In this document: piece by piece, positions 1,310 through 18,072 of the stretch | Layout: every line of letters starts with the position of its first letter | Position numbering within the stretch: position 1 is the first letter of the stretch | Assembly (NCBI GenBank): GCA_004295055.1 | Contig: SHNJ01000031.1 | Location: 72,802-136,801 of the forward strand | Length of the DNA stretch: 64,000 bases | Source: Alphaproteobacteria bacterium | GTDB lineage: Bacteria > Pseudomonadota > Alphaproteobacteria > SHNJ01 | Reading direction: 5' to 3' | Translations under genes and position numbers: made by a program | Notes under the pieces: model-generated | The model's input: the letters and a program-made list of their open reading frames with translations, nothing else | The model's database searches: none | What the model was told of the DNA's origin: nothing

Positions 1310-2281
1310 TTACGGCGTTGGTTTCTTCCGCCGTCCTTCTTGCCATTCAAACAGCACTAAGAACACCGCGGCAATAGCCAATGGCCCCAGCAGATAAATT
1401 ATGCGGAACAACAGCAACGTGCCGAAAATAGTCGGCGCCGAATAATAATTGCCCAGCATCGTCAATACCACCCATTCAAAAACGCCAAGTCCGCCGGGAA
1501 CGTGCGACAGAATGCCGATAGTGGTGCCGATTACATAAATGAAAAAGAAATGCTGATATCCGATGATTTTCGAATCTGGCAACAGGACATATAAAATTGC
1601 CGATGCAACCGCGACATCGGTGACGGTTATTATTAATTGAAATATCGACAATGGCGCCGACGGCATCTTAAATTCAAAACCTTTGAATTGAATCGGATGC
1701 TTGCGATGTCCAACCCAAAATATATACCCCGTTACTATTGCCAGCGTTAGTCCGCCCAATATTTCACTCAGCAACGTTGGCATGAATTCGAACGGTTCCA
1801 AATAATAAGGGAAAAACGCCATCACGAATCCGAAAATGGCGGTTACGCCAATAGAATAGGTTAGAATGCAGAATGCGACGATTTTGGCAACATCGATAGG
1901 GCCAATGCCGCTGTGCCCATAAAGCCGCAATCGTACCGATCCGCCAGTGATCGGAGAAACGCCTAGATTCTGGCTAAAGGCAAATCCCATGAACGAAGCC
2001 ATGAAAATGCGTGGCCAAGGAACCTTTTTACGAACATAGAATAGGGCAGAAGCATCATAACCCGCTAAAACCACATAAGAGATCACGGTAAGCCCTATGG
2101 CCCACCAAACATGGGTGTGTGGGATTGCGGCGATGGCATCCAAAAAGTCCTGCCAGGAGTGCTTTTTAAGGGTTTTATGCAATAGCCAGCCCGCAGCCGA
2201 AAACAAGGCTATGGCCATTAAAGGCCAAAGCATTGAAATGACTTGTTTTGAAGGTTTTAAACGGGCAACCCAGGACATCAT
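1310..2281 (-). CDS. Polytopic membrane protein of the UPF0104 / lysyl-phosphatidylglycerol-synthase TM (flippase-like) family
   Basis: 323 aa with about 8 hydrophobic helices, a Gly-rich C-terminal helix pair and a KK-rich C-terminus, typical of the MprF N-terminal flippase-like domain. No fused synthase domain is present. Confidence 0.55.
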   Translation of the reverse strand: MMSWVARLKPSKQVISMLWPLMAIALFSAAGWLLHKTLKKHSWQDFLDAIAAIPHTHVWWAIGLTVISYVVLAGYDASALFYVRKKVPWPRIFMASFMGFAFSQNLGVSPITGGSVRLRLYGHSGIGPIDVAKIVAFCILTYSIGVTAIFGFVMAFFPYYLEPFEFMPTLLSEILGGLTLAIVTGYIFWVGHRKHPIQFKGFEFKMPSAPLSIFQLIITVTDVAVASAILYVLLPDSKIIGYQHFFFIYVIGTTIGILSHVPGGLGVFEWVVLTMLGNYYSAPTIFGTLLLFRIIYLLGPLAIAAVFLVLFEWQEGRRKKPTP

Positions 2282-3564: not shown

Positions 3565-4119
3565 ATGAAAAAAGTAATATTGTGTTTAGCAATAGGAATA
3601 ATGACGGCATCCACCGCAAATGCGGAAAATGCGCGTCCGGTATGGAATACCGATTATTCCAATAATCAACCGCAAAGTTCGGATAAAGTGTACGTTGCCC
3701 CCGCGCCGATGGCGCCGGCGCCAACGCCTTATACGGTTCAGCATATTCCGCCAAACCAAGTTCGCAATTTTGCTCCGCGAGTTCAAGGCAGCGCCGATGC
3801 GGCCTGGGCAAGGCAATGGGGACCGATTCAGGAAATGACCGGCATCAATAGCGGTCAGGCCAAGCAATTCATTACTGGCGTCAAACAAGGATATGTCGAA
3901 GGCACCGCCAAAACCCTTAGCAGCGCGCAAGACTGGGCCTTGATCCTCGGTCAAAGCGGCCTGGTTGGAACGGTTACCGATTCTACGACTGACTGGTTTC
4001 ATTATGTTACATCGGATTTGCCAGGCGCTATTTATAAATATGATAATGGGGTAAACAACAATCTGATGGGCGGTTTATCCGGATTCGGCAATTATCCTGG
4101 CATGAAGATAGGGGAATAG
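3565..4119 (+). CDS. Secreted hypothetical protein with signal peptide
   Basis: Strong RBS (AGGAGGG) 7 nt upstream. N-terminal MKKVILCLAIGIMTASTANA signal peptide with A-x-A site. No recognisable domain. Confidence 0.6.
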   Translation: MKKVILCLAIGIMTASTANAENARPVWNTDYSNNQPQSSDKVYVAPAPMAPAPTPYTVQHIPPNQVRNFAPRVQGSADAAWARQWGPIQEMTGINSGQAKQFITGVKQGYVEGTAKTLSSAQDWALILGQSGLVGTVTDSTTDWFHYVTSDLPGAIYKYDNGVNNNLMGGLSGFGNYPGMKIGE

Positions 4120-4170
4120 CGTACACTTACCCTCGAGCTGTTTCGACCTATATTATATCTCGAGGTTTCC

Positions 4171-5352
4171 ATGTCAAAAAATATCTATATCGCCGGTGCG
4201 GCGCGTACCCCGATGGGTGGATTTCAAGGTGAATTATCATCGCTGACGGCACCGCAACTGGGCAGTTATGCTATCAAGGCGGCATTGGAACGTTCGGGCA
4301 TAAAATCAGATTCCATCAATGAAGTTCTTATGGGTTGCGTCTTGCCGGCAGGTTTAGGCCAGGCCCCCGCACGGCAAGCATCCATAGGTGCTGGGATTCC
4401 AATCGGTGTTGGATGCACGACAGTGAACAAAGTCTGTGGTTCGGGATTGAAATCGGTGATGCTGGGTTATGATTCGATTTTGGCGGGACATAACGAAGCG
4501 GTGATCGCAGGCGGCATGGAAAGCATGAGTAACGCGCCATATTTGTTGGAAAAAGCGCGCGGTGGATATCGCCTTGGCCATGGAAAAATTGCCGACAGCA
4601 TGTTTTTGGATGGGCTTGAAGATGCCTATGACCGCGGCCGTTTGATGGGCACATTCGCCGAGGATACGGCGCAGCATTATCAATTTACCCGCGCTCAACA
4701 GGATGAATTCGCGCTGCGATCATTAGACCGCGCGCGCAAAGCAGGTATGGACGGCAGTTTTTCCCGTGAGATTGTTTCGATTGTCATGGACAATAAGAAA
4801 GAAAAAATAACCATCAGTTCAGACGAACAGCCACGTAACGCTAAACCGGAAAAAATTCCGACATTGAAACCGGCTTTCCGCGATGGCGGCACGGTAACGG
4901 CGGCCAATTCCAGTTCCATTTCCGATGGGGCTGCCGCGGTAATTGTTTGCAGCGAAGCGCAAATGCAAAAGTCCGGAGCAAAGCCATTGGCGCGGATTGT
5001 CGCCCATGCGACGCATGCGCAAGAACCAGCCTGGTTTACAACCGCGCCGGTATTTGCCATTAAAAAAGTCGCCGAAAAAGCCGGGTGGAATTTAAAAGAC
5101 GTGGATTTGTTTGAAATTAACGAGGCGTTTGCCGTCGTTACCATGGCCGCGCAACATGAATTGAATTTACCTAATGAAAAGGTCAATATTCGTGGCGGCG
5201 CTTGCGCAATGGGCCATCCGATCGGCGCTTCCGGCGCGCGCGTGTTGGTGACACTAATTCATGCGTTGCAAGATATGAAATTGAAACGTGGTATTGCCAG
5301 CCTGTGCATTGGCGGCGGTGAAGCCGTCGCGATGGCCATAGAAACTATTTAG
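4171..5352 (+). CDS. atoB: Acetyl-CoA C-acetyltransferase (thiolase II)
   Basis: 393 aa with thiolase motifs (VNKVCGSGLKSV active-site Cys; C-terminal NIRGGACAMGHPIGASGARVL…CIGGGEAVAMAIE). Confidence 0.85.
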   Translation: MSKNIYIAGAARTPMGGFQGELSSLTAPQLGSYAIKAALERSGIKSDSINEVLMGCVLPAGLGQAPARQASIGAGIPIGVGCTTVNKVCGSGLKSVMLGYDSILAGHNEAVIAGGMESMSNAPYLLEKARGGYRLGHGKIADSMFLDGLEDAYDRGRLMGTFAEDTAQHYQFTRAQQDEFALRSLDRARKAGMDGSFSREIVSIVMDNKKEKITISSDEQPRNAKPEKIPTLKPAFRDGGTVTAANSSSISDGAAAVIVCSEAQMQKSGAKPLARIVAHATHAQEPAWFTTAPVFAIKKVAEKAGWNLKDVDLFEINEAFAVVTMAAQHELNLPNEKVNIRGGACAMGHPIGASGARVLVTLIHALQDMKLKRGIASLCIGGGEAVAMAIETI

Positions 5353-7148
5353 TCTGCCGGGTGTCCTATTTCAGACGCATTTTCAGTGCAATCTGTCTGT
5401 GGTCCGTTTTTCTGCGCAGTTTCGCATACAATTGTACCATCTGCTGGTGCTGATACTACGTCTTGTCCAGCCGGCAATCCAACAGGAGTGTATGTAGTTG
5501 GTCCTGGATCAACAGAAACTATAGTTTTTGCCGCTGGATCCCAATTGTAAGCCCAATTGGCATGATAATTGGCTAGACCGTGCACGCCAGTGTGTAATAA
5601 TTCAGGATATGTCTGGCTGCAATCTGCAGAATTATTAAGCAAAGTTACAGCCGCATCCGTTTTGCAGTTGGCTGAACTGCGTTCCGGATAAGTGTAAGTA
5701 CGGTCCCGCGCTTGCTGCGAGTTCGATGATAAATAGCAGTAAAATTGATTGGTATTTGGGGAATAGCCTACCACTTGGTGGGCTAACGGTCCGTCACCGT
5801 TGGCCAGAGAGCATGACTCTTCCCATCTGCCATAGGTAGTATCGTTCGCATTCACGCCTTCACAGACGAAAGTGTTGCTGGTCGCGGTTGTTGCGTCCCA
5901 AACAATCTTTTTACCTTCAGGGCATGGCGTTGGGCCGTTTGATGGATTTGGCGGTCTGGAATTTAACAATGTCCACCCACCGGCGCAAATTAGACTGCCA
6001 TCCCGCAATATGATCACGCCTTTACTGCGCGTACCGGGAAAATATGGATGATTATCATAATAACGTTGTGGGCATTCAAAATTGGCTAAACGAGTCATAA
6101 TATCATTCGGTAAAGCCGGATTTGGCCAGGTGCCGTCGGCCGCTACCGGAGAGACCGCATCGTAATATTCATCTACCGCGTACATCGATACGATTTGCCG
6201 GTTTACGTTGTCATAGGTCTCTGTGTTGACTTTTGCTTCGCGAATTTCGATGTCGGCACAGCTCATCCCGTTATTGATAGTTCCATCATTATTGGTGCCG
6301 CGCGAATTCAGGGCGGTTCCAACGGTACAATTTTGAGTTTCATTGCTGCCTGGCGCGGCGGCCAATCCCAGAACATTTCTTTCGCAACGGAACCGGGCTG
6401 GCAAAGTTTCCGCGGTATTGCCATCGCCGTCCTCATCGTTGACATCCACAGCTTGAGGTTTGAATATCATTTCTTCGCCGGCAGGACAGGCGCTTTCGCT
6501 AAGCGTGGTATTTTCCGTTTGCGAACTGCGGATCCATTTCAATGCCTGTGCCGGCGTTACATTGATGTATTTGCTGTTATCGCTTGTTACGCCAGCAGCG
6601 GCAGCGCTGCAAGTCATCATATGATCAGGATATTTGTTTAGAATAAGGGTAAATAATATCGGCGGATTGGCGGGTGCTGGAATATACCCATTTGTGCTGC
6701 TATAGCCGGCTTCTACCGGATAATATGGACAATAACGCATATATCTACGCAAGCTATCTGGCCGCAGTGGGGCCATTTGACGCAAGTTTCTCGGCAATTT
6801 ACCGCCATAAGCATAGGTAGGATTATTGCCTTCCAAAAGAGGAGTGGTAATAGTCGCATCGGAAGTAGTATCGCTGTTATCAGGAAATACGGCTGCAATT
6901 GGATGCACTCTCCCGGTGCTGCGGATATTGTCGCTGGAGGCCCGCGCAATGCTAGAAGCCAATACATTCAACAATGTGTCGTCGGTTATTTTCTCAGCAG
7001 ATTGGCGATTATCTTTTAATGCATTAATGTTCGGCGTAAAGATAGCAGCATTGGCCAGCATGATTAGAACGATAAAAAGCAATAAATGCGATACCATCCC
7101 GCGCTGGCGATTTTGAATGTTATGATATGGTTTCATTCTAAATCTCAT
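5349..7148 (-). CDS. Large cysteine-rich secreted or membrane-anchored protein with prepilin-like leader (no Glu+5)
   Basis: 599 aa. N-terminus is a basic leader ending in QRG|M followed by about 20 hydrophobic residues. About 25 Cys and many N-x-T/S. Third gene of a tightly packed three-gene minus-strand array. Confidence 0.55.
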   Translation of the reverse strand: MRFRMKPYHNIQNRQRGMVSHLLLFIVLIMLANAAIFTPNINALKDNRQSAEKITDDTLLNVLASSIARASSDNIRSTGRVHPIAAVFPDNSDTTSDATITTPLLEGNNPTYAYGGKLPRNLRQMAPLRPDSLRRYMRYCPYYPVEAGYSSTNGYIPAPANPPILFTLILNKYPDHMMTCSAAAAGVTSDNSKYINVTPAQALKWIRSSQTENTTLSESACPAGEEMIFKPQAVDVNDEDGDGNTAETLPARFRCERNVLGLAAAPGSNETQNCTVGTALNSRGTNNDGTINNGMSCADIEIREAKVNTETYDNVNRQIVSMYAVDEYYDAVSPVAADGTWPNPALPNDIMTRLANFECPQRYYDNHPYFPGTRSKGVIILRDGSLICAGGWTLLNSRPPNPSNGPTPCPEGKKIVWDATTATSNTFVCEGVNANDTTYGRWEESCSLANGDGPLAHQVVGYSPNTNQFYCYLSSNSQQARDRTYTYPERSSANCKTDAAVTLLNNSADCSQTYPELLHTGVHGLANYHANWAYNWDPAAKTIVSVDPGPTTYTPVGLPAGQDVVSAPADGTIVCETAQKNGPQTDCTENASEIGHPAD

Positions 7149-7152
7149 TCAT

Positions 7153-8694
7153 TTAATCCACTGCTGTGCATGTAAACCGCGGATTCGGATTTGCATCTTT
7201 TATGAAAGTTAACGAACCTCTTTTGCCGTTAATCGGCGGACATGTATTCGCCGGCATGGCAAAACGAAGCGCTTCAAATATATTGATGCATTGTACCAAT
7301 CTGCGATCGTCCACCCGGGCTTGCATGACATTGTTCACGGGGCATCCGTCACTTGTGCTGTAATGCACGGCGGCATCTTCTGCAAACCCGCCGGCCAGCA
7401 CTGGGTCGTTTAAAATGTAACAGCCAAATCCGCCCATGCTGGAAACAAAGCCGACGTCGAATCCCGCTTTGCATACTCTTAATCCGCCAGCTTGCGCATC
7501 TTCCGGACAGAATGTGCGGCCACTGGCGTAGTATGGCGTAATTCCACCGTTGCAAGCTGTGCGCGCTCCGGGGCCGCCATTTCTTGCCAGGTTGGTATTA
7601 TTGAATGGATAACAAGAAGTATAGCGCGATAGCGCCACTGCGAGCCAATTTCCAGCAGAGCAGGTGCTTAGAACCACATTTTCCGGTATGCCGTTGCATA
7701 TCCTTTGTGTTCCCGTCCAGCGGAATGTTTCGATATGATTGGTGCAAGGAGCGGCAGCGGCCATATCGCCGTCAATTAAAGAGGCAATAGCGCCATTTTC
7801 GTCGAAAATCAATCCAAAGTCGGAACGGGCGCGTGGCGCCACGGTAGAAACGCAGGCCAGTTCTTGATACTCATGTTCTGCATCGCCCTCATGCACCAAT
7901 CGCAATGTCAAGGCGGTGCCTTGTGGGCAAGTAGGTATATTTTCCGCGGCGCTGTCGGATTTCAGGAAAAATGCTGGAATAGTGCTTTCCACGCATTCCC
8001 AATTTTTCTGATCGATATTCCATTGTAAATTTGTAAGTTTACGATCTCTGCCCGTTCCTGTAATTCCGCATGTTGGAATGTTCCCGGCGTTTTCGATAAG
8101 ATTTTTGTAAGCATCCCTGTTAACGTCTCTAACGGTTTTAAAAATACCGATATCGTCGCCTCGGGTAATGCCTTGCATAACATCGTTCTTATTGGTGTCT
8201 ATTTGTCCGTCCGCACCGGGAAGAATCATGGCAAAAGACATTTCGTCCGGATTTGGAATGCCGCCTGCGCCAGACAAGTAATAACCGGCCGGAGCATTAT
8301 CCGTGCTTCGCGGCATATGGATGAAAGCGAAATAAGCAACTTCGCCGAATTTGGTGTTGGCGGAGAATCCAGTCGGCAGTTTGCCACCCCACTCTGGATT
8401 TGGCACATCTCCGTCCTGCATCGATCTGCCGCCGGCAGTCGCCGACATCGCCGGCGCCACTTTCATGACGCCTTGTTGATCCAGATTTGATTCCGCAATA
8501 ATACTGGCCAGTTGTTGTAACTTGTTCCGGGCTTGCACGTTTCTTTGCTGATCGATTAGCTTGTCAAAAATGCCGACATAGCTTCCCGCTAATGTAATGG
8601 CGGCCGCGCTGGCCAGCATGCCGAACAGGACCGGCGCGGCTAAGAAGCCTCTCTGGCTGTTTTTTCTGCGAAATATGGTAAACAGTTTCATCAT
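7153..8694 (-). CDS. Large cysteine-rich secreted or membrane-anchored protein with prepilin-like leader; paralog-like of its two neighbours
   Basis: 513 aa. Leader MMKLFTIFRRKNSQRG|FLAAPVLFGMLASAAAITLAG. Cys/Gly/Asn-rich. 4-nt gap to the downstream gene. Confidence 0.55.
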   Translation of the reverse strand: MMKLFTIFRRKNSQRGFLAAPVLFGMLASAAAITLAGSYVGIFDKLIDQQRNVQARNKLQQLASIIAESNLDQQGVMKVAPAMSATAGGRSMQDGDVPNPEWGGKLPTGFSANTKFGEVAYFAFIHMPRSTDNAPAGYYLSGAGGIPNPDEMSFAMILPGADGQIDTNKNDVMQGITRGDDIGIFKTVRDVNRDAYKNLIENAGNIPTCGITGTGRDRKLTNLQWNIDQKNWECVESTIPAFFLKSDSAAENIPTCPQGTALTLRLVHEGDAEHEYQELACVSTVAPRARSDFGLIFDENGAIASLIDGDMAAAAPCTNHIETFRWTGTQRICNGIPENVVLSTCSAGNWLAVALSRYTSCYPFNNTNLARNGGPGARTACNGGITPYYASGRTFCPEDAQAGGLRVCKAGFDVGFVSSMGGFGCYILNDPVLAGGFAEDAAVHYSTSDGCPVNNVMQARVDDRRLVQCINIFEALRFAMPANTCPPINGKRGSLTFIKDANPNPRFTCTAVD

Positions 8695-8705
8695 GTTCTT
8701 TTCAT

Positions 8706-10238
8706 TTACCTATATATACATTTAAATTTCTTGTTGGTTTCATCCCAACTGACCATTTGGTGTCCGTTGCAAGAACTGCTGGGCGTAACTCTTGTCAATA
8801 ATTCAAACCTATCCAGGCATACATAATTGGTGCCGTCGTGCATGATAAAATCACCCGCTCTGCAAGATGTACGGGTATCGCTATATGGAATGATCCAATT
8901 GCGCGGTTCTTGAGTGTTATTGCTTTCCAAACATTGCGTATTGTTAGTAACCGTCTGGAATTCCAATATTTGATTTGGCTGGCAGGTTTGCTTGACCTCG
9001 AAACTTAAGTTCCCGGCAAAACAGAATAATTTTCCGCGATCGAATACGATGTATGGCCGTCCGGAACAATTGCTGCCGCTTAATAAGCTGCTTGGCATGC
9101 CGAGGCAACGCAAGGTGCCATCGCGGCTTTGGTACAAGGCTTTGAATTGTCCGCCGGATGCTTGGAAATCGCAGCTGCTTGCCAACAGCGGAATGGATAA
9201 GCTTACGCTTGGCGGACCAATTTCATCGCCATACGAAGAAAGACGATCACACCGGAAACTGTAATTGTCGTTGGCCACGCTCGATAACGCGCCAATGGCG
9301 TACCCGCGATAACAGATGCCGGCGGCCAAACGGCCCATATTGATATTCTCCGGCACTTGATTGGCCAATTGATCGACAACCCGGCAACCTAAAGTGCCAT
9401 CGGCATTCAAAGCCAGGCGTTGTGAATCCAAACAGCGGCGTAAACCATGCGAAGAATAATCCTGATTCACAAAATTCATGTAATTGTCGCGGCAGTTCCA
9501 GCTATGCTCTCCGGTGGCATTGCCATCGCCATCCTGCACATTGGTGTATTCCAAAGTTTGCAAGGCCGTACAGGTCGGAACGCCGTTATGCAACAAAGCG
9601 CGGCGATTGGCATTGGCGTGTTCCAACACTTCGCCGTATTTGATAAGTCTAATTTGGTCGTCGCTGCCGTTCACGGGGGTTTCATTCAAAGCATAATTGC
9701 AGGTATACTCAGGCGTACCGTTTTGTCCGTAACTGATAATTGCAAATACAGATTGTTTCATAAGCAGCGTTGTATTAGCTTGAACCTCGCGCCGTCCATT
9801 AGCAACATATGGTGGTACTATATCTTGAAGATTGATAGAACAAATTCGGAAGTCTCTACCGTAAGCATCCTTTCCGATGGTATCTCGCAAATCTACTTCT
9901 TGATTGTTAATAGTTGTCAATAGAGGTTCTATAAAACCCATAGCAGATTGTTCCCACTGCTGCGTATCACCTTCTGGATTAGGTTGAGTTTTGGTGTAAT
10001 ACATGCGCGGCAATTCAAGATAACGATCCCCATCAATATTGCTAATCTTGTTAGCAAGAATATATTCCGCTAATCGGTCTATGTTCTTTTTGGTATTTAA
10101 ATCGCTTTGTGTGGTGCCTACTTTCTGCGCAAGGCCAGCGGTCAGCGTGATCAGCGTGCCCAGCATCGCGACCGACGCGACAAGAGTGGCGATATATGCC
10201 CCGCCAATAAAGCCAGATTGTGATTTAAAAATTTGCAC
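8706..10238 (-). CDS. Large cysteine-rich secreted or membrane-anchored protein with prepilin-like leader; first gene of the array
   Basis: 510 aa. Leader MQIFKSQSG|FIGGAYIATLVASVAMLGTLITL. AT-rich promoter-like region upstream (10239-10518). Confidence 0.55.
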   Translation of the reverse strand: MQIFKSQSGFIGGAYIATLVASVAMLGTLITLTAGLAQKVGTTQSDLNTKKNIDRLAEYILANKISNIDGDRYLELPRMYYTKTQPNPEGDTQQWEQSAMGFIEPLLTTINNQEVDLRDTIGKDAYGRDFRICSINLQDIVPPYVANGRREVQANTTLLMKQSVFAIISYGQNGTPEYTCNYALNETPVNGSDDQIRLIKYGEVLEHANANRRALLHNGVPTCTALQTLEYTNVQDGDGNATGEHSWNCRDNYMNFVNQDYSSHGLRRCLDSQRLALNADGTLGCRVVDQLANQVPENINMGRLAAGICYRGYAIGALSSVANDNYSFRCDRLSSYGDEIGPPSVSLSIPLLASSCDFQASGGQFKALYQSRDGTLRCLGMPSSLLSGSNCSGRPYIVFDRGKLFCFAGNLSFEVKQTCQPNQILEFQTVTNNTQCLESNNTQEPRNWIIPYSDTRTSCRAGDFIMHDGTNYVCLDRFELLTRVTPSSSCNGHQMVSWDETNKKFKCIYR

Positions 10239-10518
10239 CGTTTACAACCCTCGCTCATCCCAAAAAATTAAAGTGGGTTGAACAAAACCTTTTTCCCCAT
10301 CCTCTTATTGTTACTCAGTATGGTTAAGCGGCAGTAAACATCGGATAAAAATATTAGTAATTAAATTACAATATATTGATTTAATGTTATTATTTATTGT
10401 AATTGTAGTACTAAGGTATGAAAAAGCATATCTTGTCTGTTTTTTGGCCAAAAGCGGACTTGTGTTTAAAAGCCGTTTTGGCTAAACATATATCTATAGA
10501 ATTCTAAGGGAGAGAGAA

Positions 10519-11139
10519 ATGGCGCAAGCAAATTTTGGATTAACCGCTGTTGCAGCTATGGGCGCGGTAACGGCTTTTGGTATTGTGCCAGCCAACGCGG
10601 ATATTTGGCTGCATCAGGGTACCAATAACACTAGTTTTGCCACATCGGAAATGATGACAGGAAATGTTACTGGTGTTCAAGTAAATATATCGGGGGACAA
10701 TTTGTGGGCATTTACGGCTCGTGCAACAAGTCAGTATATTACTGTTACCTCTGGTTTTTCAAACCAACCAGGTATGTTTGCAGGGTTTGACATGTTTAGT
10801 AATCCATTACCAGTAGGTTCTGGTTATAATGACGTGGATCAAACAGGCATAAATATGACTATGAATATTGGTGCTCAGAATGTTGGTCAACTAATTACCC
10901 TAGTTTTTGCTAATTATGGTATGGTTCCACTCAGCAATGGATCGGATTTGTATGACGTTGGAAGCTCTGGACAAATTAATCCATTGTTTATGGGTGCATG
11001 GAATGGCACAGGGGGTCAGAATCAATTTGGCGTCGAAACTCGCGTATACGAAATTACTGGCATTACCGGTGTTCCAGCTCCGGGTGTGTTGACCTTGGCT
11101 ATGGCTGGCGGTTTATTGGCCGCGCGTCGCCGCCGCTAA
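10519..11139 (+). CDS. Secreted protein with PEP-CTERM-like C-terminal sorting tail
   Basis: RBS GGGAGAGAGAAATG. Signal peptide …GIVPANA|D. C-terminus GVPAPGVLTLAMAGGLLAARRRR is a P-x-P, hydrophobic helix, Arg-cluster arrangement. Paralog of 11365-11985. Confidence 0.65.
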   Translation: MAQANFGLTAVAAMGAVTAFGIVPANADIWLHQGTNNTSFATSEMMTGNVTGVQVNISGDNLWAFTARATSQYITVTSGFSNQPGMFAGFDMFSNPLPVGSGYNDVDQTGINMTMNIGAQNVGQLITLVFANYGMVPLSNGSDLYDVGSSGQINPLFMGAWNGTGGQNQFGVETRVYEITGITGVPAPGVLTLAMAGGLLAARRRR

Positions 11140-11164
11140 TCGATAAAGATCAAATTTTGATTCA

Positions 11165-11195
11165 AAAGGCCTGGGTGAAACCCAGGCCTTTTTAT
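11165..11195 (+). terminator. Rho-independent terminator
   Basis: GGCCTGGG-TGAAA-CCCAGGCC hairpin followed by TTTTTAT. Confidence 0.7.
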
Positions 11196-11364
11196 ATGTG
11201 CGCACGAATAATTAATACTATCGTATGATTATAATATAATTATACTAATATGAAATAAAATTAGCAATATAATTGCAAGGATGGCTAAGAATCATTTTGC
11301 CAACCAAATGGTAAGTGGATTATAAATGCTTACTTCAAAAACTACTTTTTTCGTGGAGAGAAAA

Positions 11365-11985
11365 ATGGTCCGAGCAAATTTTGGAATGATTGCCGCCTTT
11401 ACCGCGGCCACCGCTTTCGGCACACAAGCGAATGCAGATATTTGGGAACAACATGGCAGCGACAACACCGCTTTTGCGACATCGGAAAGAATGACCGGCC
11501 GCGAAATTGACGGAATTGAGTACAGTGTTACTGGCGATAATTTATTTGCCTTTACTGGCGTTGCAAATAGTCGATTTATTACCATTATTTCCCCTGCATC
11601 TAACCAGCCTGGTATTGTGTATGTCCTGGACAAAGATGGAAAACCATTTCCAGTAGGTTCAGGTTATAATGACATTACACAAGAGGGCGTCGATATGATT
11701 ATCGATATTGGCGATGCCAATGTCGGTAAAGAAATCACTTTCGTATTTGGTAATTACGGCACGTTGGCGCAAAATGGCGAAACTCCGCTTTTTAATGATT
11801 ACGAATGCGGCCAAATCGATCCAGATGTGGTTGCGACATGGACTCTGACTGGTGGTCAAAATCAATTTGGTTCCGAAACTCGTGTTTGTTTCTTCGGCGA
11901 GGGAGAAGTTCGCGGTGTGCCAAAAGTAAGCACCACGACGGCGACGGCAGCAGCAAGAGCCAGAGCCACGCGCTGTTGCGACTAA
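11365..11985 (+). CDS. Secreted paralog of 10519-11139 with degenerate (Thr/Ala-rich) C-terminal tail
   Basis: Start moved to MVRANFG… (RBS GGAGAGAAAAATG, matching its paralog). Shared blocks are ANFG…TAFG…ANADIW, PVGSGYND and TGGQNQFG.ETRV. C-terminus is VPKVSTTTATAAARARATRCCD. Confidence 0.6.
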   Translation: MVRANFGMIAAFTAATAFGTQANADIWEQHGSDNTAFATSERMTGREIDGIEYSVTGDNLFAFTGVANSRFITIISPASNQPGIVYVLDKDGKPFPVGSGYNDITQEGVDMIIDIGDANVGKEITFVFGNYGTLAQNGETPLFNDYECGQIDPDVVATWTLTGGQNQFGSETRVCFFGEGEVRGVPKVSTTTATAAARARATRCCD

Positions 11986-12000
11986 CAATTAGATAGAATA

Positions 12001-12034
12001 AAAAAAGCCCGGTTTAATCCGGGCTTTTTTATTG
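12001..12034. terminator. Bidirectional rho-independent terminator
   Basis: AAAAAAA-GCCCGG-TTTAAT-CCGGGC-TTTTTTATT. It lies between two convergent genes (11365-11985 on + and 12048-12428 on -). Confidence 0.75.
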
Positions 12035-12047
12035 GGAGTATTTAACC

Positions 12048-12428
12048 TTAGCTTTCATAATTATCATTCGCGAACATGGCGGCGACGCCCGCACCGAAAT
12101 GATTTTCGATGCGGTAATATTGAATTTCCCGGTCGTTAAAATAATTTTGTTTTTTTAGCAAATTTTGCAGCAACGATTGCTTGCGGCGGTATTCGCGGTA
12201 CGCCTTGGCGATCAGGCGCGGGATCGCCTCGGAAATATCGACGATGTTTTTCGCGCCGAATCCCGCAACCGGCATTTCCGCTTGCCACATTCTGTAATGC
12301 CGCAAAGTTTGCAACATCCAATACCGCAGCAATTGAATCTCAGCGCGCATGGCGCAAATCAGCATTTTTGTCTGGCGCGGATTGGCGGGTACAAAATAAA
12401 AACCCGGCCCGGCGAATTCTTGGTTCAT
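12048..12428 (-). CDS. Small protein of unknown function; paralog A of 14172-14540
   Basis: 126 aa with RBS AGGGAGAGC. The C-terminal 43 aa and about 150 nt are near-identical to 14172-14540 (…[47 protein letters not shown]). Transcribed divergently from an XRE regulator. Confidence 0.6.
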   Translation of the reverse strand: MNQEFAGPGFYFVPANPRQTKMLICAMRAEIQLLRYWMLQTLRHYRMWQAEMPVAGFGAKNIVDISEAIPRLIAKAYREYRRKQSLLQNLLKKQNYFNDREIQYYRIENHFGAGVAAMFANDNYES

Positions 12429-12606
12429 AAAAAGCTCTCCCTAAATATTAATTTTTGTTGGTTACGAGGGGTAAAATAGGCCTAAATGGTTAATGAATGG
12501 TTAATTTATAGATAGAAATCATAAAAAATATTACTAATATTCATTTTTTTTATGATTTATCTTGATAATGGGATTCAGGCCTTCTAAAACAAAGCAGGGT
12601 AAGACT
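12429..12606. promoter_or_regulatory. Divergent AT-rich promoter region with GGTTAAT direct repeats (candidate operator)
   Basis: TGGTTAATGAATGGTTAAT at 12487-12505 lies between divergent genes. An analogous GGTTAAT…GTTAAT is in the paralogous region 14754-14772. Confidence 0.35.
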
Positions 12607-13251
12607 ATGACTTTGGATGCTTCTCAAATCCGCGCCGCACGCGCCTTGTTGGACTGGACAATCGAAGATTTGGCCAAAATTACCGGCTTGAGCAAGGATT
12701 CCATCAAAAATGTAGAGCGTGGGCATACTCAACCCCGTATAAATACCCGAATTGTTATAGAAGAAGCTTTTGAAAAAGCAGGCATCGAATTTTTGCCGGG
12801 TTCTGGCGTGCGCAAGAAAAATAATTTAATAACGACCTTAACCGGCGAATACGCCAATCGGCAATTGCTGGATGATGTGTATGCAACCCTTGTGGCTCGG
12901 GAAAATGCGTGTGTCTATATTACCGGCGTCAAGGAAACACAAAGCATCGATAGTGTGGATTATGAATATTTGGAAAAACATATTCAACGCTTATTGAAAG
13001 CGAATATTAAAGAAAAATTGATTGTTGAAGAAGGCGATTCCACTTTTATAGCGCCTTCATACAGCTATCGGTGGATAGCAGAACAATATTTTGAGAATGT
13101 ACCCATCCAAGTTTATGGCGATAAAATCGCCTTTGTGGATTGGGGGCCGCCGGAGCAAATCGTTATCATTCAAAACAAAGGATTTGCCATGGCTATGCAG
13201 AAACTGCTGGATTTCGCATGGCAAAACTGCGCCGTGCCTAAAGGCTTGTAA
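12607..13251 (+). CDS. XRE-family helix-turn-helix transcriptional regulator with uncharacterised C-terminal domain
   Basis: Start set to MTLDASQIRAARALLDWTIEDLAKITGLSKDSIKNVERG (HTH). Same length as, and colinear with, paralog 14937-15584 (conserved EEGD…YRW…VY.DK.A). Confidence 0.6.
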   Translation: MTLDASQIRAARALLDWTIEDLAKITGLSKDSIKNVERGHTQPRINTRIVIEEAFEKAGIEFLPGSGVRKKNNLITTLTGEYANRQLLDDVYATLVARENACVYITGVKETQSIDSVDYEYLEKHIQRLLKANIKEKLIVEEGDSTFIAPSYSYRWIAEQYFENVPIQVYGDKIAFVDWGPPEQIVIIQNKGFAMAMQKLLDFAWQNCAVPKGL

Positions 13252-13252
13252 A

Positions 13253-14119
13253 ATGATGCATATATCCGGAAAGCTAAAGCAAATCGTATCCTTAGGGCCA
13301 GAAAATTTCGACTTTCTGAAAGCGGCCAATAACAACGACAGTTATCAATTGTCGCCTACATATTATTTGTTTACCGGAAGAAAAGGTTTATGGGTGTTGG
13401 AACAGGATGGGCAAGCGGCTTTAATTGCTAAGCATCCTAACTTAGAAGACGAATTGTTGGTATTTTATCCTAATGGATATTGCCCAAATCTAGAGCATCA
13501 AGTTTTACATCATGTTCCGCGTAACAGCCGATTAAAAGCTGCAAGACTAGCCGTTTGCGCAAATTCTAATCTCAATGCAGTTATGGATGAGGAACTATTC
13601 TTAGATTGGCGTTACCCAGTCTGCATACTGGATACTGCGTATGTTGGAAAACTGCGCGGCAGGTTATTAGAGGATGTAAAGAACAATTATAATAGAGCCG
13701 CTAGAACGATTTGTAGAATTGAGGCTTACAATCCGGCTGCGCATAAAGATCGCATGAGAGAATTGATTCAACAATGGCATCGCCCGGAAGCGCATGATGG
13801 ATATGAAGGGCTATTAAATATTATGGAACGAATGCCGGGAAATTTCGGCTTAATCGCTCTAACAGAAGAATCTATCGCGGGGTTTATTCACTGGGAAATG
13901 CCATGGAAACCGGGGAGTCCGGCTAATTCTCTGGCCTTGATTGTTGACAAAAGCATTAAAGGATTAAGCGAATTTATGATGGTGGAAATGTGCCGCGCGT
14001 TGGTGCAGACCGGATGCCTTGCTGTCAATATAGGTGGGTCTGAAACCGAAAGCCTTCATTATTTTAAAAGCAAATTTAATCCAAAAATGGTGGATCTGCG
14101 TAATTATAATTATGCTTAA
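13253..14119 (+). CDS. Stand-alone DUF2156 / phosphatidylglycerol-lysyltransferase C-terminal-like (FemXAB/GNAT-fold) protein; putative aminoacyl-tRNA-dependent transferase
   Basis: Start re-set to the ATG 1 nt after the regulator stop (MMHISGKLKQ…); the track's 13091 start overlaps the regulator. C-terminal signature …GSETESLHYFKSKFNPKMVDL matches the FK.KF.P motif that ends MprF C-domains. Confidence 0.5.
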   Translation: MMHISGKLKQIVSLGPENFDFLKAANNNDSYQLSPTYYLFTGRKGLWVLEQDGQAALIAKHPNLEDELLVFYPNGYCPNLEHQVLHHVPRNSRLKAARLAVCANSNLNAVMDEELFLDWRYPVCILDTAYVGKLRGRLLEDVKNNYNRAARTICRIEAYNPAAHKDRMRELIQQWHRPEAHDGYEGLLNIMERMPGNFGLIALTEESIAGFIHWEMPWKPGSPANSLALIVDKSIKGLSEFMMVEMCRALVQTGCLAVNIGGSETESLHYFKSKFNPKMVDLRNYNYA

Positions 14120-14171
14120 AGATTAATACTTTTTAAGTAGTACAATGCGCGGCGAGGCAGCTAATATGGCG

Positions 14172-14540
14172 TTAGGCATAATTATCGTTCGCGAACATGG
14201 CGGCGACGCCCGCGCCGAAATGATTTTCGATGCGGTAATATTGAATTTCCCGGTCGTTAAAATAATTTTGTTTTTTTAGCAAATTCTGCAACAACGATTG
14301 CTTGCGGCGGTATTCGCGCAACGATTGGTTGATCAATCCCTGCACTTTGCTTTGCATATTGGCGATTTTTTTTGCCGGCAATGCGCCGTCATTGTTCATT
14401 TCCGCGCGCCAGGATTTATAATTCTGCAAAGTTTGCAGCATCCAATAACGTAGCAAGCGGATTTCCGCTTCCATCGCCTCGGCTAAATTTTGACTTTTGC
14501 CTTTGGTGTTGGCATTGGTTTTATTTTGTTGTGCTGGCAT
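14172..14540 (-). CDS. Small protein of unknown function; paralog B of 12048-12428
   Basis: 122 aa with RBS AAGGGAG. C-terminus identical to paralog A. Preceded on the same strand by a 47-aa ORF. Confidence 0.6.
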   Translation of the reverse strand: MPAQQNKTNANTKGKSQNLAEAMEAEIRLLRYWMLQTLQNYKSWRAEMNNDGALPAKKIANMQSKVQGLINQSLREYRRKQSLLQNLLKKQNYFNDREIQYYRIENHFGAGVAAMFANDNYA

Positions 14541-14560
14541 ATCTCGCTCCCTTAACTCCG

Positions 14561-14704
14561 TTAGGCCGCTTTTTGTACTTTGCGCATTTCTTCAACTACG
14601 TTCAGCGCAAAATAGGGGCCATATTTAATTTCCAAATACTCATAAATTTCTTCTTCGCTCATCATCGCGTAATTTGGTTTGGTATTTTGATTCGCGTAAT
14701 CCAT
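14561..14704 (-). CDS. Small ORF (47 aa) not in the supplied track: MDYANQNTKPNYAMMSEEEIYEYLEIKYGPYFALNVVEEMRKVQKAA
   Basis: Read by hand on the minus strand. ATG at 14704, stop TAA at 14561-14563. It ends 20 nt before the RBS and ATG of 14172-14540, an operon-like spacing. Acidic/aromatic, no signal peptide. Confidence 0.35.
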   Translation of the reverse strand: MDYANQNTKPNYAMMSEEEIYEYLEIKYGPYFALNVVEEMRKVQKAA

Positions 14705-14710
14705 CTCTAG

Positions 14711-14936
14711 TCCCTTAGTTCCCGTTGTTGGCAACGAGAGAATAGGATCATAAGGTTAATCAAAAGTTAATTCAATAGAAAAAATATCTAATAACGATAT
14801 ATTTTATGCCTTTTATAGATGGTATTATACACAAATTATTGATATATAATGATAATATTCCATCCAGAAAAATAAAAAATGACGATATTTTTTATATGTT
14901 CTTGCAATATGTTTTATATCTTGTTATGCAGAAAAC
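14711..14936. promoter_or_regulatory. Divergent AT-rich promoter region with GGTTAAT-N6-GTTAAT repeat (candidate operator)
   Basis: GGTTAATCAAAAGTTAATT at 14754-14772. Same position relative to the regulator gene as in cassette 1. Confidence 0.35.
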
Positions 14937-15584
14937 ATGATAGACGCCAAACAAATACGCGCCGCGCGCGCTTTGCTGAATTGGTCGCGGGAGGAGCTGG
15001 CCGAACAAACGGGGATTTCCGTCCCCGCGCTTGCTCGCGCCGAAACGGGCGAATCGCAATTGCGCACGACTAGCGCCGAGAAAATCAAATCATCGTTGGA
15101 GCAGGCGGGTGTAATTTTTACGGATGGCAGTGGTGTGAAGCTCAAAACGGATTTGGTACAAATTTATGAAGGTGAAAATTGCTATCTAAAATTGCTGGAA
15201 GATTTTGAAGACCTGAATGTTAAAGGAGAAAAAGAAATTCTGTTCAGTTCTGCTTCTGAAAAAAGATCAACGGATGAGGTTATTGAGAAAACGCGTCTTC
15301 TAAGAAAAAAAGGCATTAAGATGCGCTTTCTTTTGGAGGAAGGCGACACATACATAATGGGTGACCTTTCAGAATATAGATGGATGCATAAAAGTTTATT
15401 TTCCAAGGGTGACGTAAAGCTAGTGTATGCGGATAAAGTCGCTTATTTGGTTAGTTGGATGGAAACACCTCGTGTTGTAGTTGTTTCTGAGAAAAACATT
15501 GCTGAAGAAAATCGAAGAGCGTTTGAATTTATTTGGAATATATCGAAGAAACCGACGCACAGCGATGCGGACATTTCATATTGA
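14937..15584 (+). CDS. XRE-family HTH transcriptional regulator; paralog of 12607-13251
   Basis: MIDAKQIRAARALLNWSREELAEQTGISVPALARAETG HTH. C-terminal domain colinear with its paralog. Confidence 0.6.
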   Translation: MIDAKQIRAARALLNWSREELAEQTGISVPALARAETGESQLRTTSAEKIKSSLEQAGVIFTDGSGVKLKTDLVQIYEGENCYLKLLEDFEDLNVKGEKEILFSSASEKRSTDEVIEKTRLLRKKGIKMRFLLEEGDTYIMGDLSEYRWMHKSLFSKGDVKLVYADKVAYLVSWMETPRVVVVSEKNIAEENRRAFEFIWNISKKPTHSDADISY

Positions 15585-15592
15585 GGCGCAGA

Positions 15593-16309
15593 ATGTTCGA
15601 AATCAAAATTAAAACGTCAAAAAATCAAATCGCCTTATATAATCGCTGTGTATTGGGCGTAAGTCTAGATAGCAATAATCACAGAGGTGATCGTCTGGCG
15701 GCATTGGTAGAATGGGCTAATGATAATTTTAAAGATTGCATCGTCGATCTTACCGATACTTTGCATCGGTATAATCACATGGCGGATCTAAAATTGTCGG
15801 AAAACGATGCCAGATTGAAAGCCCATATTCAGGGCGATCAGTGGCTGCAAGAATCATATCACATATTATCCAATTTCAAGATTCCATATTGCATTCTGCG
15901 GTGGGATGCATGGAAATATAATCATAAGTTTATAAGGTATCTGCATATGTTTGAAAGCGCATTCGCGGTCGATAAAAATTTCCGTGAAGCTGTTATGTAT
16001 GATGTTAATTTATTTTTAGGCAGAAGAAAAGCTCTTGGCAGTCCAACCACGGAGCAATTATGCGTTACCTATTTATTGGAAGAACTTGCTGGTCAATCCT
16101 TATTGTATGAACAATTTCCAGCTGCTGAGATTTATCCGGGTAAACAACAAAAAAGCTTTGGATTAGTGCGTGCTGGGAAAGTGCCTAATGTGCCAACTGG
16201 TTTGCAGAATTCCTGTTTTGTAAGCCTGTATCTGCATGACAAGAGTGCGGGGTTATTTGGTTCCGCCAATGACGATGCAGATTTTGCTGATTTAAGAAAA
16301 ATGGGTTGA
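15593..16309 (+). CDS. Cyclodipeptide synthase (CDPS)-like tRNA-dependent enzyme
   Basis: Start set to the ATG 9 nt after the regulator stop (MFEIKIKT…, 238 aa). Motifs colinear with AlbC-type CDPS are: LGVSLDSNN (the G-x-S catalytic-Ser loop); LVEWANDNF…IVDLTDT (compare LLQWAGQRF…VVYVDT); TYLLEE (the Y…E pair); and SLYLHD (the late Tyr). Confidence 0.65.
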   Translation: MFEIKIKTSKNQIALYNRCVLGVSLDSNNHRGDRLAALVEWANDNFKDCIVDLTDTLHRYNHMADLKLSENDARLKAHIQGDQWLQESYHILSNFKIPYCILRWDAWKYNHKFIRYLHMFESAFAVDKNFREAVMYDVNLFLGRRKALGSPTTEQLCVTYLLEELAGQSLLYEQFPAAEIYPGKQQKSFGLVRAGKVPNVPTGLQNSCFVSLYLHDKSAGLFGSANDDADFADLRKMG

Positions 16310-16464
16310 TACTTCTGAAACCTTGATTTCAAAGCCTGAACACACTCCTATCCATATATTTCTCCACATATTGCCCCGCACTCTAAATCTCCTTGGAATC
16401 CGGCTTATTTTAAGGCATCTTAAGGGCCGCTTTCCTATATCCAGCCCTTATCCCGATTACCCGC

Positions 16465-18072
16465 ATGAAAACCTTATCCAGCCAGATCAATACAAAATCC
16501 GAAGATTTCAAAACCAACGCCGCGCATATGCAATCGCAGATTGACGATATGAACGAAAAACTGGCGCGGATTCAGCTGGGCGGATCCGAAGACGCGCGCA
16601 AAAAACATACTGCGCGCGGCAAATTACTCACGCGTGACCGGATCAATCATTTGCTCGATCCCGGCTCGGCATTTTTAGAATTCAGCGCCTTTGCCGGATA
16701 TAATATGTACGAAGATGATGTGCCCGCCGCCAGTATCATTACCGGCATTGGCCGCGTCAATGGCCAGGAATCGGTCGTCATCGCCAACGATCCGACGGTT
16801 AAGGGCGGAACCTATTACCCGATGACGGTGAAAAAACATTTGCGGGCGCAAGACATCGCCGCGCAAAACAACTTGCCTTGCATTTATCTGGTCGATTCGG
16901 GCGGCGCGTTTTTGCCGATGCAGGATGACGTGTTTCCAGACCGCGATCATTTCGGCCGTATTTTTTATAACCAGGCGCGCATGTCTTCCCGACGTATTCC
17001 GCAAATAGCGGTGGTGATGGGTTCTTGCACCGCAGGCGGCGCCTATGTTCCCGCCATGTCGGACGAAGTGGTGATTGTTAAAAACCAAGGGACTATTTTC
17101 CTGGGCGGCCCGCCACTGGTCAAGGCCGCGACGGGCGAGGTTGTTACGGCGGAGGATCTGGGCGGCGCGGACGTGCATTGCCGCACGTCGGGCGTTGCCG
17201 ATCATATGGCGGATCATGATCGTCATGCGCTGGAAATCACCCGCAATATTGTTGGCAATCTAAACCGTTCGCCGCAAACCAAATTAAATCGTATCTCGCC
17301 GGAATTGCCGAAATACGATCCGGCGGAATTGGTTGGCATTATTCCCAAAGACACGCGCAAGCCGTTCGATATCCGCGAAATCATTGCGCGTATCGTCGAT
17401 GGCAGCCGGTTCGATGAATTCAAGGCGCTGTATGGCACGACCATCGTTTGCGGATTTTCCTATATCATGGGTATGCCGGTCGGTATTATCGCCAACAACG
17501 GCATTCTGTTTTCCGAAGCCGCGTTAAAGGCGACGCATTTTATTGAATTATGCAGTCAGCGCGGAATTCCATTGGTGTTCCTGCAAAATATCACCGGATT
17601 CATGGTTGGCCGCAAATATGAAAATGACGGCATCGCCAAAGATGGCGCGAAAATGGTGACCGCAGTGTCTTGCGCCAATGTGCCGAAATTTACCGTGCTG
17701 ATTGGCGGATCGTTCGGCGCTGGCAATTATGGAATGTGCGGGCGGGCCTTTAACCCGAATTTATTATGGATGTGGCCGAATTCGCGGATTTCCGTTATGG
17801 GCGGCGAACAAGCGGCGAATGTGTTATGGCAGATCCGCGCGGACAGGGCAGAGGCCGAAGGCAAAAAACCAACCGCCGCCGAAGCCGAGCAATTCAAATC
17901 GCCAATCCGCCAGCAATATGAAAATCAAGGCCATCCTTATTATGCTTCCGCGCGTTTGTGGGACGACGGTATTTTATCGCCAACCGACACGCGCATGGCG
18001 TTGTCGATGGGAATTTCAGCCTCGCTGAACGCTCAGTGGGACGATACACGATTCGGCGTATTTAGAATGTAG
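16465..18072 (+). CDS. mccB: Methylcrotonyl-CoA carboxylase carboxyltransferase (beta) subunit
   Basis: 535 aa acyl-CoA carboxyltransferase fold (two crotonase-like halves). Adjacent to liuC, mccA and hmgL. Confidence 0.8.

Follow-up and report, generated by a model that had tools for sequence, protein, structure and literature searches.

A short C-terminal module very probably homogenized by gene conversion between two small genes of a hypervariable regulator-enzyme locus in a metagenome-assembled alphaproteobacterium

The classic case of interlocus gene conversion is that of tufA and tufB of Salmonella, while in the pilE/pilS system of Neisseria antigenic variation arises as sequence from silent donor cassettes diversifies a surface protein that is expressed. 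Interlocus gene conversion in bacteria is also known from the PE_PGRS gene pairs and other repeats of Mycobacterium tuberculosis (PMC1762029, PMC12046097). Here we analyzed a 64-kb stretch of contig SHNJ01000031.1 (the window, to which all unlabeled positions refer) from a metagenome-assembled alphaproteobacterium, in which two small genes, as delimited by the list of open reading frames (ORFs) and by database identity, share a C-terminal module: gene A (126 amino acids, 12048-12428, minus strand; EYC62_08010, P0004) and gene B (122 amino acids, 14172-14540, minus strand; EYC62_08025, P0001). Judging from sequence comparison, the shared segment very probably arose when a recent interlocus (ectopic) gene conversion carried about 60-141 nucleotides (nt) of gene B into gene A, leaving the latter with an A-type N-terminal part and a B-type C-terminal module, of which gene B is the likely donor.

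Like other conversions between paralogs, this one would be a non-reciprocal homologous recombination within one genome with sharp tract ends, inside which the paralogs are closer to each other than to their orthologues and synonymous sites are homogenized. Unlike the known cases, genes A and B are short (~125 codons) and only part of the gene is homogenized; the tract itself is small, and about 60-141 nt is close to the minimum length usually assumed for RecA-dependent exchange. The copying of partial-gene patches between copies recalls pilE/pilS, but both copies here are complete genes with their own promoters, and the outcome is homogenization of a helical protein predicted to be cytoplasmic. 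At this locus no dedicated recombination signal was seen, although none was specifically searched for.

A repeat search pairs 12056-12214 with 14177-14335, a match of 159 nt at 93% identity and an offset of 2121; the two genes lie 2.1 kb apart in direct orientation and are the only family copies within the window. In a codon alignment, residues R78-Y124 of gene A and R75-Y121 of gene B are identical at 47 of 47 positions (12057-12197 and 14178-14318, 141 nt each, both on the minus strand), and the underlying DNA differs at 4 of 141 nt, all of them synonymous: L87 (CTG in A, TTG in B), Q88 (CAA, CAG), G112 (GGT, GGC) and N121 (AAT, AAC). The first-pass annotation of this locus had described a near-identical segment of 150 bp that gives both proteins the same C-terminal 43 residues. 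The repeat and the identity are real, but the coordinates for the B copy were one base out of register, the identical stretch comprises 47 residues, and the literal C-termini that follow it differ (ES in A, A in B).

Upstream of the module the two genes have diverged, as had been noted, to 38% protein identity (28 of 73 residues) and 51% DNA identity (112 of 219 nt). Estimated by the Nei-Gojobori method, synonymous divergence (dS) between A and B is 1.46 in the N-terminal part and 0.16 in the module, and nonsynonymous divergence (dN) is 0.49 and 0, respectively. The maximum chi-square statistic (80.9, permutation p<0.0005) locates the breakpoint precisely at the start of codon R78 of A and R75 of B, just ahead of the REYRRKQ motif, with 107/219 differences to its left and 6/144 to its right; together with the pairwise alignment, this upholds the sharp mosaic boundary, rather than uniform identity, that the annotation had proposed. 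Moreover, identical degenerate residues are encoded by different codons in 12 of 22 cases in the N-terminal part versus 4 of 46 in the module (Fisher p=8e-5). Synonymous sites have thus been homogenized, which puts the identity beyond the reach of protein-level selection alone.

To orient the exchange we compared the window with a sister genome (L001, L018 and L019), which carries one B-type and two A-type genes (A1 and A2) and whose flanking genes are closely similar to those of the window (methylcrotonyl-CoA carboxylase (MCCase) beta subunit 95.5% identical, enoyl-CoA hydratase 93.6%). The N-terminal part of gene A has 78% DNA identity to the sister A-type genes and 51% to gene B, whereas its module is 97% identical to that of its own gene B, 82-85% to B genes elsewhere and 73% to A-type genes. 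The informative part of the shared segment is only the ~60 nt at its centre (12117-12176 in gene A, SLLQNLLKKQNYFNDREIQY; 14238-14297 in gene B; both minus strand), where gene A and gene B differ at 2/60 positions and sister A1 and sister B at 29/60. Over the same positions gene A differs from sister A1 at 27/60 (an A-type centre reads QDLLRNLMRKREYFSNREIHFY), and from sister B at 15/60, equal to the 15/60 that separate gene B from sister B. This core is flanked by a 21-nt block encoding REYRRKQ and a 57-nt block encoding YRIENHFGAG..., both near-invariant in every copy, the latter with 2-6/57 differences in all pairs, converted or not. The 3' flank of gene A (terminator and convergent gene) is orthologous to that of sister A1. 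With an A-type N-terminal part, an A-type 3' flank and a B-type centre, gene A would thus be the recipient, a resident gene of A type that took its middle from the donor, gene B. Compared with its A-type orthologue, gene A has dN 0.11 and dS 0.77, indicating purifying selection.

The same comparison bears on whether the identity could instead be held by selection on the nucleotides themselves, as an RNA element, a small-RNA target or a protein-binding site, or, in a variant of this idea, by codon bias. The 57-nt block is indeed conserved even at synonymous sites across the clade, and the opposite strand has a weak predicted hairpin at 14201-14217 that resembles a terminator. The central 60 nt vary, however, not only between the sister A and B genes but also between orthologous B genes (12-15/60), and dS between orthologous B genes within the module is 0.5-1.0, so that nucleotide-level selection cannot explain the identity of A and B. 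Codon bias alone would yield about 45% codon identity (10/22, as in the N-terminal part), against 91% (42/46) in the module. An Rfam search of 11500-16500 gave only sub-threshold matches, which are caused by the terminator downstream of gene A (12001-12030) and reach the tract by extending from it; an RNA element in the tract was rejected on these grounds. Collectively, we consider selection on nucleotides a highly improbable source of the repeat.

Under gene conversion, A and B would be old paralogs between which homologous recombination copied the B module into A and left B unchanged. The exchange would most likely have been anchored in the 21-nt and 57-nt blocks, with the ~60 nt between them overwritten; the blocks would be conserved family-wide for protein-level reasons, and we infer that they served as homology anchors, which would place the boundary inside predicted helix 2 and not at a structural domain border. 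About four synonymous substitutions would have accumulated since the conversion, and as all of these changes are synonymous, both copies would still be under purifying selection. Each small gene may be the output of its own ligand-sensing XRE regulator, with a copy-specific N-terminal part and a C-terminal module that is interchangeable between copies, so that conversion there would be tolerated or favored.

Several observations weigh against this reading or limit its precision. The exact lineage is represented by a single genome, and both the date and the direction of the event rest on a sister genome with homogenized A-type genes. The CTG codon for L87 in gene A is the A-type state, and given this codon the tract may be patchy or its 5' limit uncertain. 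The source is a metagenome-assembled genome, in which the mosaic is known from assembled sequence, and the exact gene A protein is listed from NCBI and nr only, while that of gene B occurs in an independent Logan assembly as well.

Some of these points would also fit an assembly artefact, in which the assembler threaded gene A through gene B sequence at a short shared repeat: the genome is metagenome-assembled, related assemblies fragment at exactly these repeats, and the exact gene A protein is not reported from the Logan re-assembly. Yet the two copies differ at 4 sites, and at one of these gene A has a GGT codon that no other family member shares. Only ~30 nt separate the A-specific codon 77 from codons 85-88, which are of B type and also carry the A-copy-specific CTG and CAA; by sequence reasoning, any k-mer of at least 33 must therefore have existed in the reads. 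The mosaic pattern also recurs in independent assemblies of three lineages. An artefact of this kind is therefore very unlikely.

Homogenized tracts occur in two other lineages. The sister genes A1 and A2 share 303 nt with 1 mismatch, while their first 35 nt are unrelated and their last 37 nt have 7 mismatches. Similarly, a more distant clade (L021, L020 and L008) has two tandem copies that share ~250 nt with 2-3 mismatches and have unrelated 5' ends. Contigs of other assemblies terminate within these repeats, and the homogenized portion of the gene differs from lineage to lineage. These events appear to be independent of the one in the window, and with partial homogenization in at least two related lineages the family seems to evolve in concert. 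The description of the pattern as ongoing gene conversion was therefore apt. The annotation had offered two possible origins, conversion of the C-terminal module and a partial duplication of recent date, and the breakpoint and the incongruence among orthologues agree with that proposal; the two terms are operationally equal here, since the event substituted one homologous segment for another without adding sequence.

A separate observation comes from an unrelated lineage, in which metagenome contig Ga0558718_10516 (L024) has a 589-nt block, 93% identical between 464-1050 and 3936-4523, in two tandem cassettes. The block holds two divergent small genes of a different family (94 amino acids; 85 or 77 amino acids), and the regulators of the two cassettes are only 24% identical. 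This arrangement, with homogenized output genes and diverged sensor modules, parallels that in the window.

The small genes belong to cassettes with a recurrent architecture. In every locus with upstream sequence (the window twice, L001 three times, L003, L007, L008, L011, L021 twice, and L022), the small gene or operon is directly divergent from a member of one family of XRE regulators. In the window these are regulator A (214 amino acids, 12607-13251, plus strand), in which an XRE helix-turn-helix (HTH) and an effector domain are delimited by Pfam HTH_3 and the mosaic alignment, and regulator B (215 amino acids, 14937-15584, plus strand), with an XRE HTH and a PLD-like (TrmB/TrmBL2-like) effector domain. 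Regulators A and B score 34.1 and 34.5 bits against HTH_3 (cut-off 23), and the XRE HTH domain has a profile match in PDB to the C.Kpn2I controller protein (E 2e-11). An AlphaFold2 (AF2) model of regulator B, with a predicted local distance difference test score (pLDDT) of 93.5, consists of the XRE HTH and the PLD-like domain, and Foldseek matches it to TrmBL2 (3e-7), Nuc (3.5e-6) and the TrmB sugar-binding domain (3.6e-4); this is similarity of fold only, and no sequence similarity to the TrmB family was detected. Neither an HKD motif nor any other conserved His or Lys was found in the PLD-like domain, which is therefore probably ligand-binding.

The gene directly downstream of each regulator, 1-8 nt away or overlapping it, encodes an enzyme of amino-acid chemistry, and the two are predicted to be co-transcribed in each cassette. 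Enzyme A (288 amino acids, 13253-14119, plus strand), which starts 1 nt after regulator A, is LPG_synthase_C/DUF2156-like (PF09924, 40.9 bits against a cut-off of 27.5). Enzyme B (15593-16309, plus strand) is by family profile score a putative tRNA-dependent cyclodipeptide synthase (CDPS), with 62.2 bits for TIGR04539 (cut-off 45) and 36 bits for PF16715 (cut-off 27). In relatives, this place is taken by an EgtD-like methyltransferase or a CDPS-like protein. Elsewhere, the homologues nearest to regulator B (45-49% identity) are found in regulator-CDPS operons with a divergent gene of ~60 amino acids, while distant homologues (31-35% identity; P0070 and P0071) do not adjoin such enzymes, which limits the link between regulator and enzyme to the closer subfamily. 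Full-text literature searches for an association of CDPS with XRE regulators gave nothing relevant. Two of the regulator-CDPS operons in other bacteria (L012 and L014) have, directly after the CDPS, two conserved genes of ~101-103 amino acids that belong to no known family (5399-6012 and 5374-5981, respectively), and in both the divergent gene, of 61-64 amino acids, is preceded by an exact TTAA-N7-TTAAC motif.

Set against the sister genome, the cassettes of the window are conserved only in the small gene, in the intergenic region and over the first ~70-78 residues of the regulator. Compared with their sister counterparts (L001 6910-7545 and 10531-11175), the first 43 residues of regulator B and the first 28 of regulator A are identical; the DNA-binding part of regulator B is ~90% identical and its remainder largely unrelated, as aligned by eye. 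DNA similarity stops near 15173 in regulator B and near 12812 in regulator A, and the enzymes beyond are swapped, a CDPS in the window against a Methyltransf_33 protein in the sister in one case and a DUF2156-like enzyme against Methyltransf_33 in the other. Effector domain and enzyme have thus been replaced together and would be inherited as a unit, as expected if the effector domain recognizes the product or the substrate of the enzyme inherited with it. In cassette A the intergenic region (12312-12812) is likewise mosaic: 12312-12505, on the side of the small gene, is 88% identical to sister A1, and 12506-12812, on the side of the regulator, matches sister A2; the position of the junction, at the TTAA-N7-TTAAC box, suggests a past deletion that fused two cassettes.

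Such mobility raises the alternative that the repeat arose incidentally as a cassette was gained or lost, with a cassette duplicated or inserted through recombination in the small gene and one N-terminal part replaced afterward. Modular recombination at the locus is clear, effector domain and enzyme having been swapped at the domain boundary in both regulators. Cassette number varies as well (2 in the window, 3 and an orphan C-terminal fragment in the sister), the intergenic region of gene A joins sister A1-like and A2-like halves, and the tracts in the sister and L021 cannot separate cassette gain from conversion. In the window, however, a single crossover in a conserved block would leave one A-type and one B-type centre, and both centres are B-type; for the same reason Campbell-type integration, or a single crossover, was ruled out as the origin of the repeat. 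Furthermore, A-type sequence lies on both sides of the gene A tract, which is the signature of patch replacement. We regard cassette gain as an improbable origin of this repeat, and gene conversion from B to A as the better account.

The small-protein family is truly rare. A word-indexed search of 5.8 billion proteins recovered six members and an exhaustive hidden Markov model (HMM) search of 1.84 billion representatives nine clusters; a scan of species-representative genomes found 2 loci, both already known, and a metagenome scan found 6. Nothing above threshold was found for the small proteins in Pfam, NCBIfam, PHROGs or PADLOC, and in PDB the best sequence-profile match has E 0.22 and the best Foldseek match E 0.64, the latter to generic coiled-coil hairpins, in line with the earlier statement that the proteins have no recognizable family. 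The AF2 model of gene B (pLDDT 73.6) shows a long hairpin of two helices (H8-51 and H56-93), with two short helices of low confidence after it; distant members retain the hairpin up to EYRRKQ and have different tails, and the extreme C-termini across the family read NDNYA, NDNYES, NDNSPS, NDN, NDNNPN and DDAANL.

Three familiar roles for small genes beside an XRE regulator were rejected. With respect to type II toxin-antitoxin systems, the small genes are divergent, not co-transcribed, and without a match to a toxin model, and only the HTH domain gives weak sub-threshold matches, to HipB, MqsA or HigA models. A phage-type CI/Cro switch does not apply to small proteins that have no HTH domain and are predicted to form long helical hairpins. 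For a precursor or scaffold peptide of a ribosomally synthesized and post-translationally modified peptide (RiPP), the C-termini vary freely, and the enzymes lie on the opposite strand and come from three unrelated families.

The promoters of both small genes share a motif. An exact TTAA-N7-TTAAC site, TTAACCATTCATTAAC, lies 61 nt upstream of the start of gene A (12489-12504, minus strand), with a -10-like element, CCTATTTT, 8 nt downstream of it (12473-12480, minus strand) and a ribosome-binding site, GGGAGAG, upstream of the gene. A second exact site, TTAACTTTTGATTAAC (14755-14770, minus strand), lies upstream of an ORF of 47 amino acids (MDYANQ...YGPYFALNVVEEMRK; 14561-14704, minus strand), which ends 20 nt upstream of gene B and probably forms one operon with it; this ORF is also kept upstream of B-type genes in two other genomes. 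In both promoters the motif stands 8 nt upstream of a CCTAT-type -10. With a third site at 2298-2314, the window has 3 occurrences in its 64 kb against 0.73 expected, and the motif is present in 7/9 diverged cassettes examined, despite divergence of the remaining intergenic sequence. TTAA-N7-TTAAC is the full-site consensus of CtrA (PMC3692519), and as defined for CtrA full sites both small-gene promoters carry it at the -35 region, in gene orientation; ctrA was not seen among the 10 window ORFs scanned. As TTAA is self-complementary, the motif could instead be the operator of an XRE dimer. A predicted CtrA box, or a site for another shared factor, is more likely, since the predicted recognition helices differ between cassettes and the motif does not (a comparison made by eye and unscored, on the window and sister alignments and the two L024 regulators). 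The AT-rich palindrome TCATAAAAAAAA-N13-TATTTTTTATGA (12519-12555, minus strand), between the divergent promoters, is a candidate operator of regulator A. Downstream, gene A and the convergent gene 11326-11985 share a bidirectional intrinsic terminator (12001-12030), which is also kept downstream of the sister A1 orthologue.

The cassettes are part of a low-G+C island, with 39-45% G+C over ~10,000-16,400 and 47-54% on either side, that spans PEP-CTERM-like genes and both cassettes and abuts the methylcrotonyl-CoA carboxylase operon on the upstream side; an insertion point upstream of this conserved operon is common to three related genomes. The PEP-CTERM-like genes, 10519-11139 and 11326-11985, are tandem paralogs (47% protein identity, with DNA blocks at 72-78%), whose products look secreted, with a C-terminal VPAPG...RRRR tail resembling a PEP-CTERM/exosortase sorting signal and only a weak NCBIfam match, to XDP1. 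A third paralog is located within the cassette array of the sister genome, in which an orphan C-terminal small-gene fragment (FSAKEIHFYRIENHFGAGVAAIFANDNNPS, L001 9267-9356) that has no N-terminal part adjoins a PEP-CTERM-like gene; this fragment was probably left behind when a cassette was deleted. On the minus strand, 5349-10238 holds three successive large ORFs (599, 513 and 510 amino acids) with no Pfam match and no detectable mutual similarity, the 510-residue product having a hydrophobic, pilin-like N-terminus. Farther out, 1310-2281 (minus strand) is a stand-alone LPG_synthase_TM gene, encoding an MprF flippase-type membrane domain, and the third TTAA-N7-TTAAC site, which is palindromic, lies just upstream of it. 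The same window thus holds an LPG_synthase_TM gene alone and, in cassette A, an LPG_synthase_C-like gene alone.

The closest parallels to the cassettes come from quorum sensing, in which signal-synthase/receptor pairs such as the ComQXP and Agr pherotypes and LuxI/LuxR are exchanged as units between close relatives. Similarly, the cassettes encode a small-molecule enzyme beside a putative ligand-binding transcription factor, with several pairs in tandem, and in genomes with 95% identity in the flanking housekeeping genes the predicted ligand-binding part has been exchanged along with the enzyme. Unlike those pairs, the cassettes are unrelated in sequence to any known quorum-sensing family; in their putative receptor an XRE HTH is joined to a PLD/TrmB-like domain, and their enzymes are CDPS, EgtD-like or DUF2156-like. 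The succession of a DNA-binding domain and a non-catalytic PLD-like effector domain resembles the archaeal sugar-sensing TrmB and TrmBL2, but the DNA-binding domain here is of XRE/Cro type and not a winged helix. In Bacillus subtilis, the CDPS cluster yvmC-cypX comes with a MarR-like regulator, PchR (PMC4992311). A CDPS under or beside a dedicated transcription factor is common to both arrangements, whereas the regulator in the window is of another family, there is no tailoring P450 or oxidase, and the CDPS is interchangeable with unrelated enzymes at one position.

Taken together, these features lead us to propose, tentatively and as a possibility we ourselves consider doubtful, that the small genes are the conserved outputs of undescribed modular cassettes that pair an enzyme making a metabolite or signal with a receptor for it. 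The chassis of such a cassette would be the small gene or genes, the TTAA-N7-TTAAC promoter box and the XRE DNA-binding domain. The payload, swapped as one piece, would be the TrmB/PLD-like effector domain and an enzyme making an amino-acid-derived small molecule, be it a CDPS, an EgtD-like N-methyltransferase or a DUF2156-like aminoacyl-tRNA transferase. Each effector domain would sense the product of its own enzyme, several signals would converge on near-identical small effectors, and conversion would keep these outputs equivalent.

Conversion as a phenomenon is of an ordinary, well-known kind, and the repeat provides a clean, small example of it in bacteria, for which a direction and probable homology anchors can be named; what may be new is the cassette system. 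Direct repeats of 141 nt can also delete the cassette between them, consistent with the varying cassette numbers in relatives. For the orphan family, the pattern is a pointer to a C-terminal third that would be interchangeable between copies and an N-terminal part that is copy-specific. The locus as a whole is hypervariable, with regulators rebuilt at a domain boundary together with the neighboring enzyme. If the effector domains do sense the products of their enzymes, these cassettes would constitute a new family of ligand-receptor pairs, and would give CDPSs a dedicated receptor and a signaling role, a rare clue to the purpose of the cyclodipeptides made by stand-alone CDPSs.

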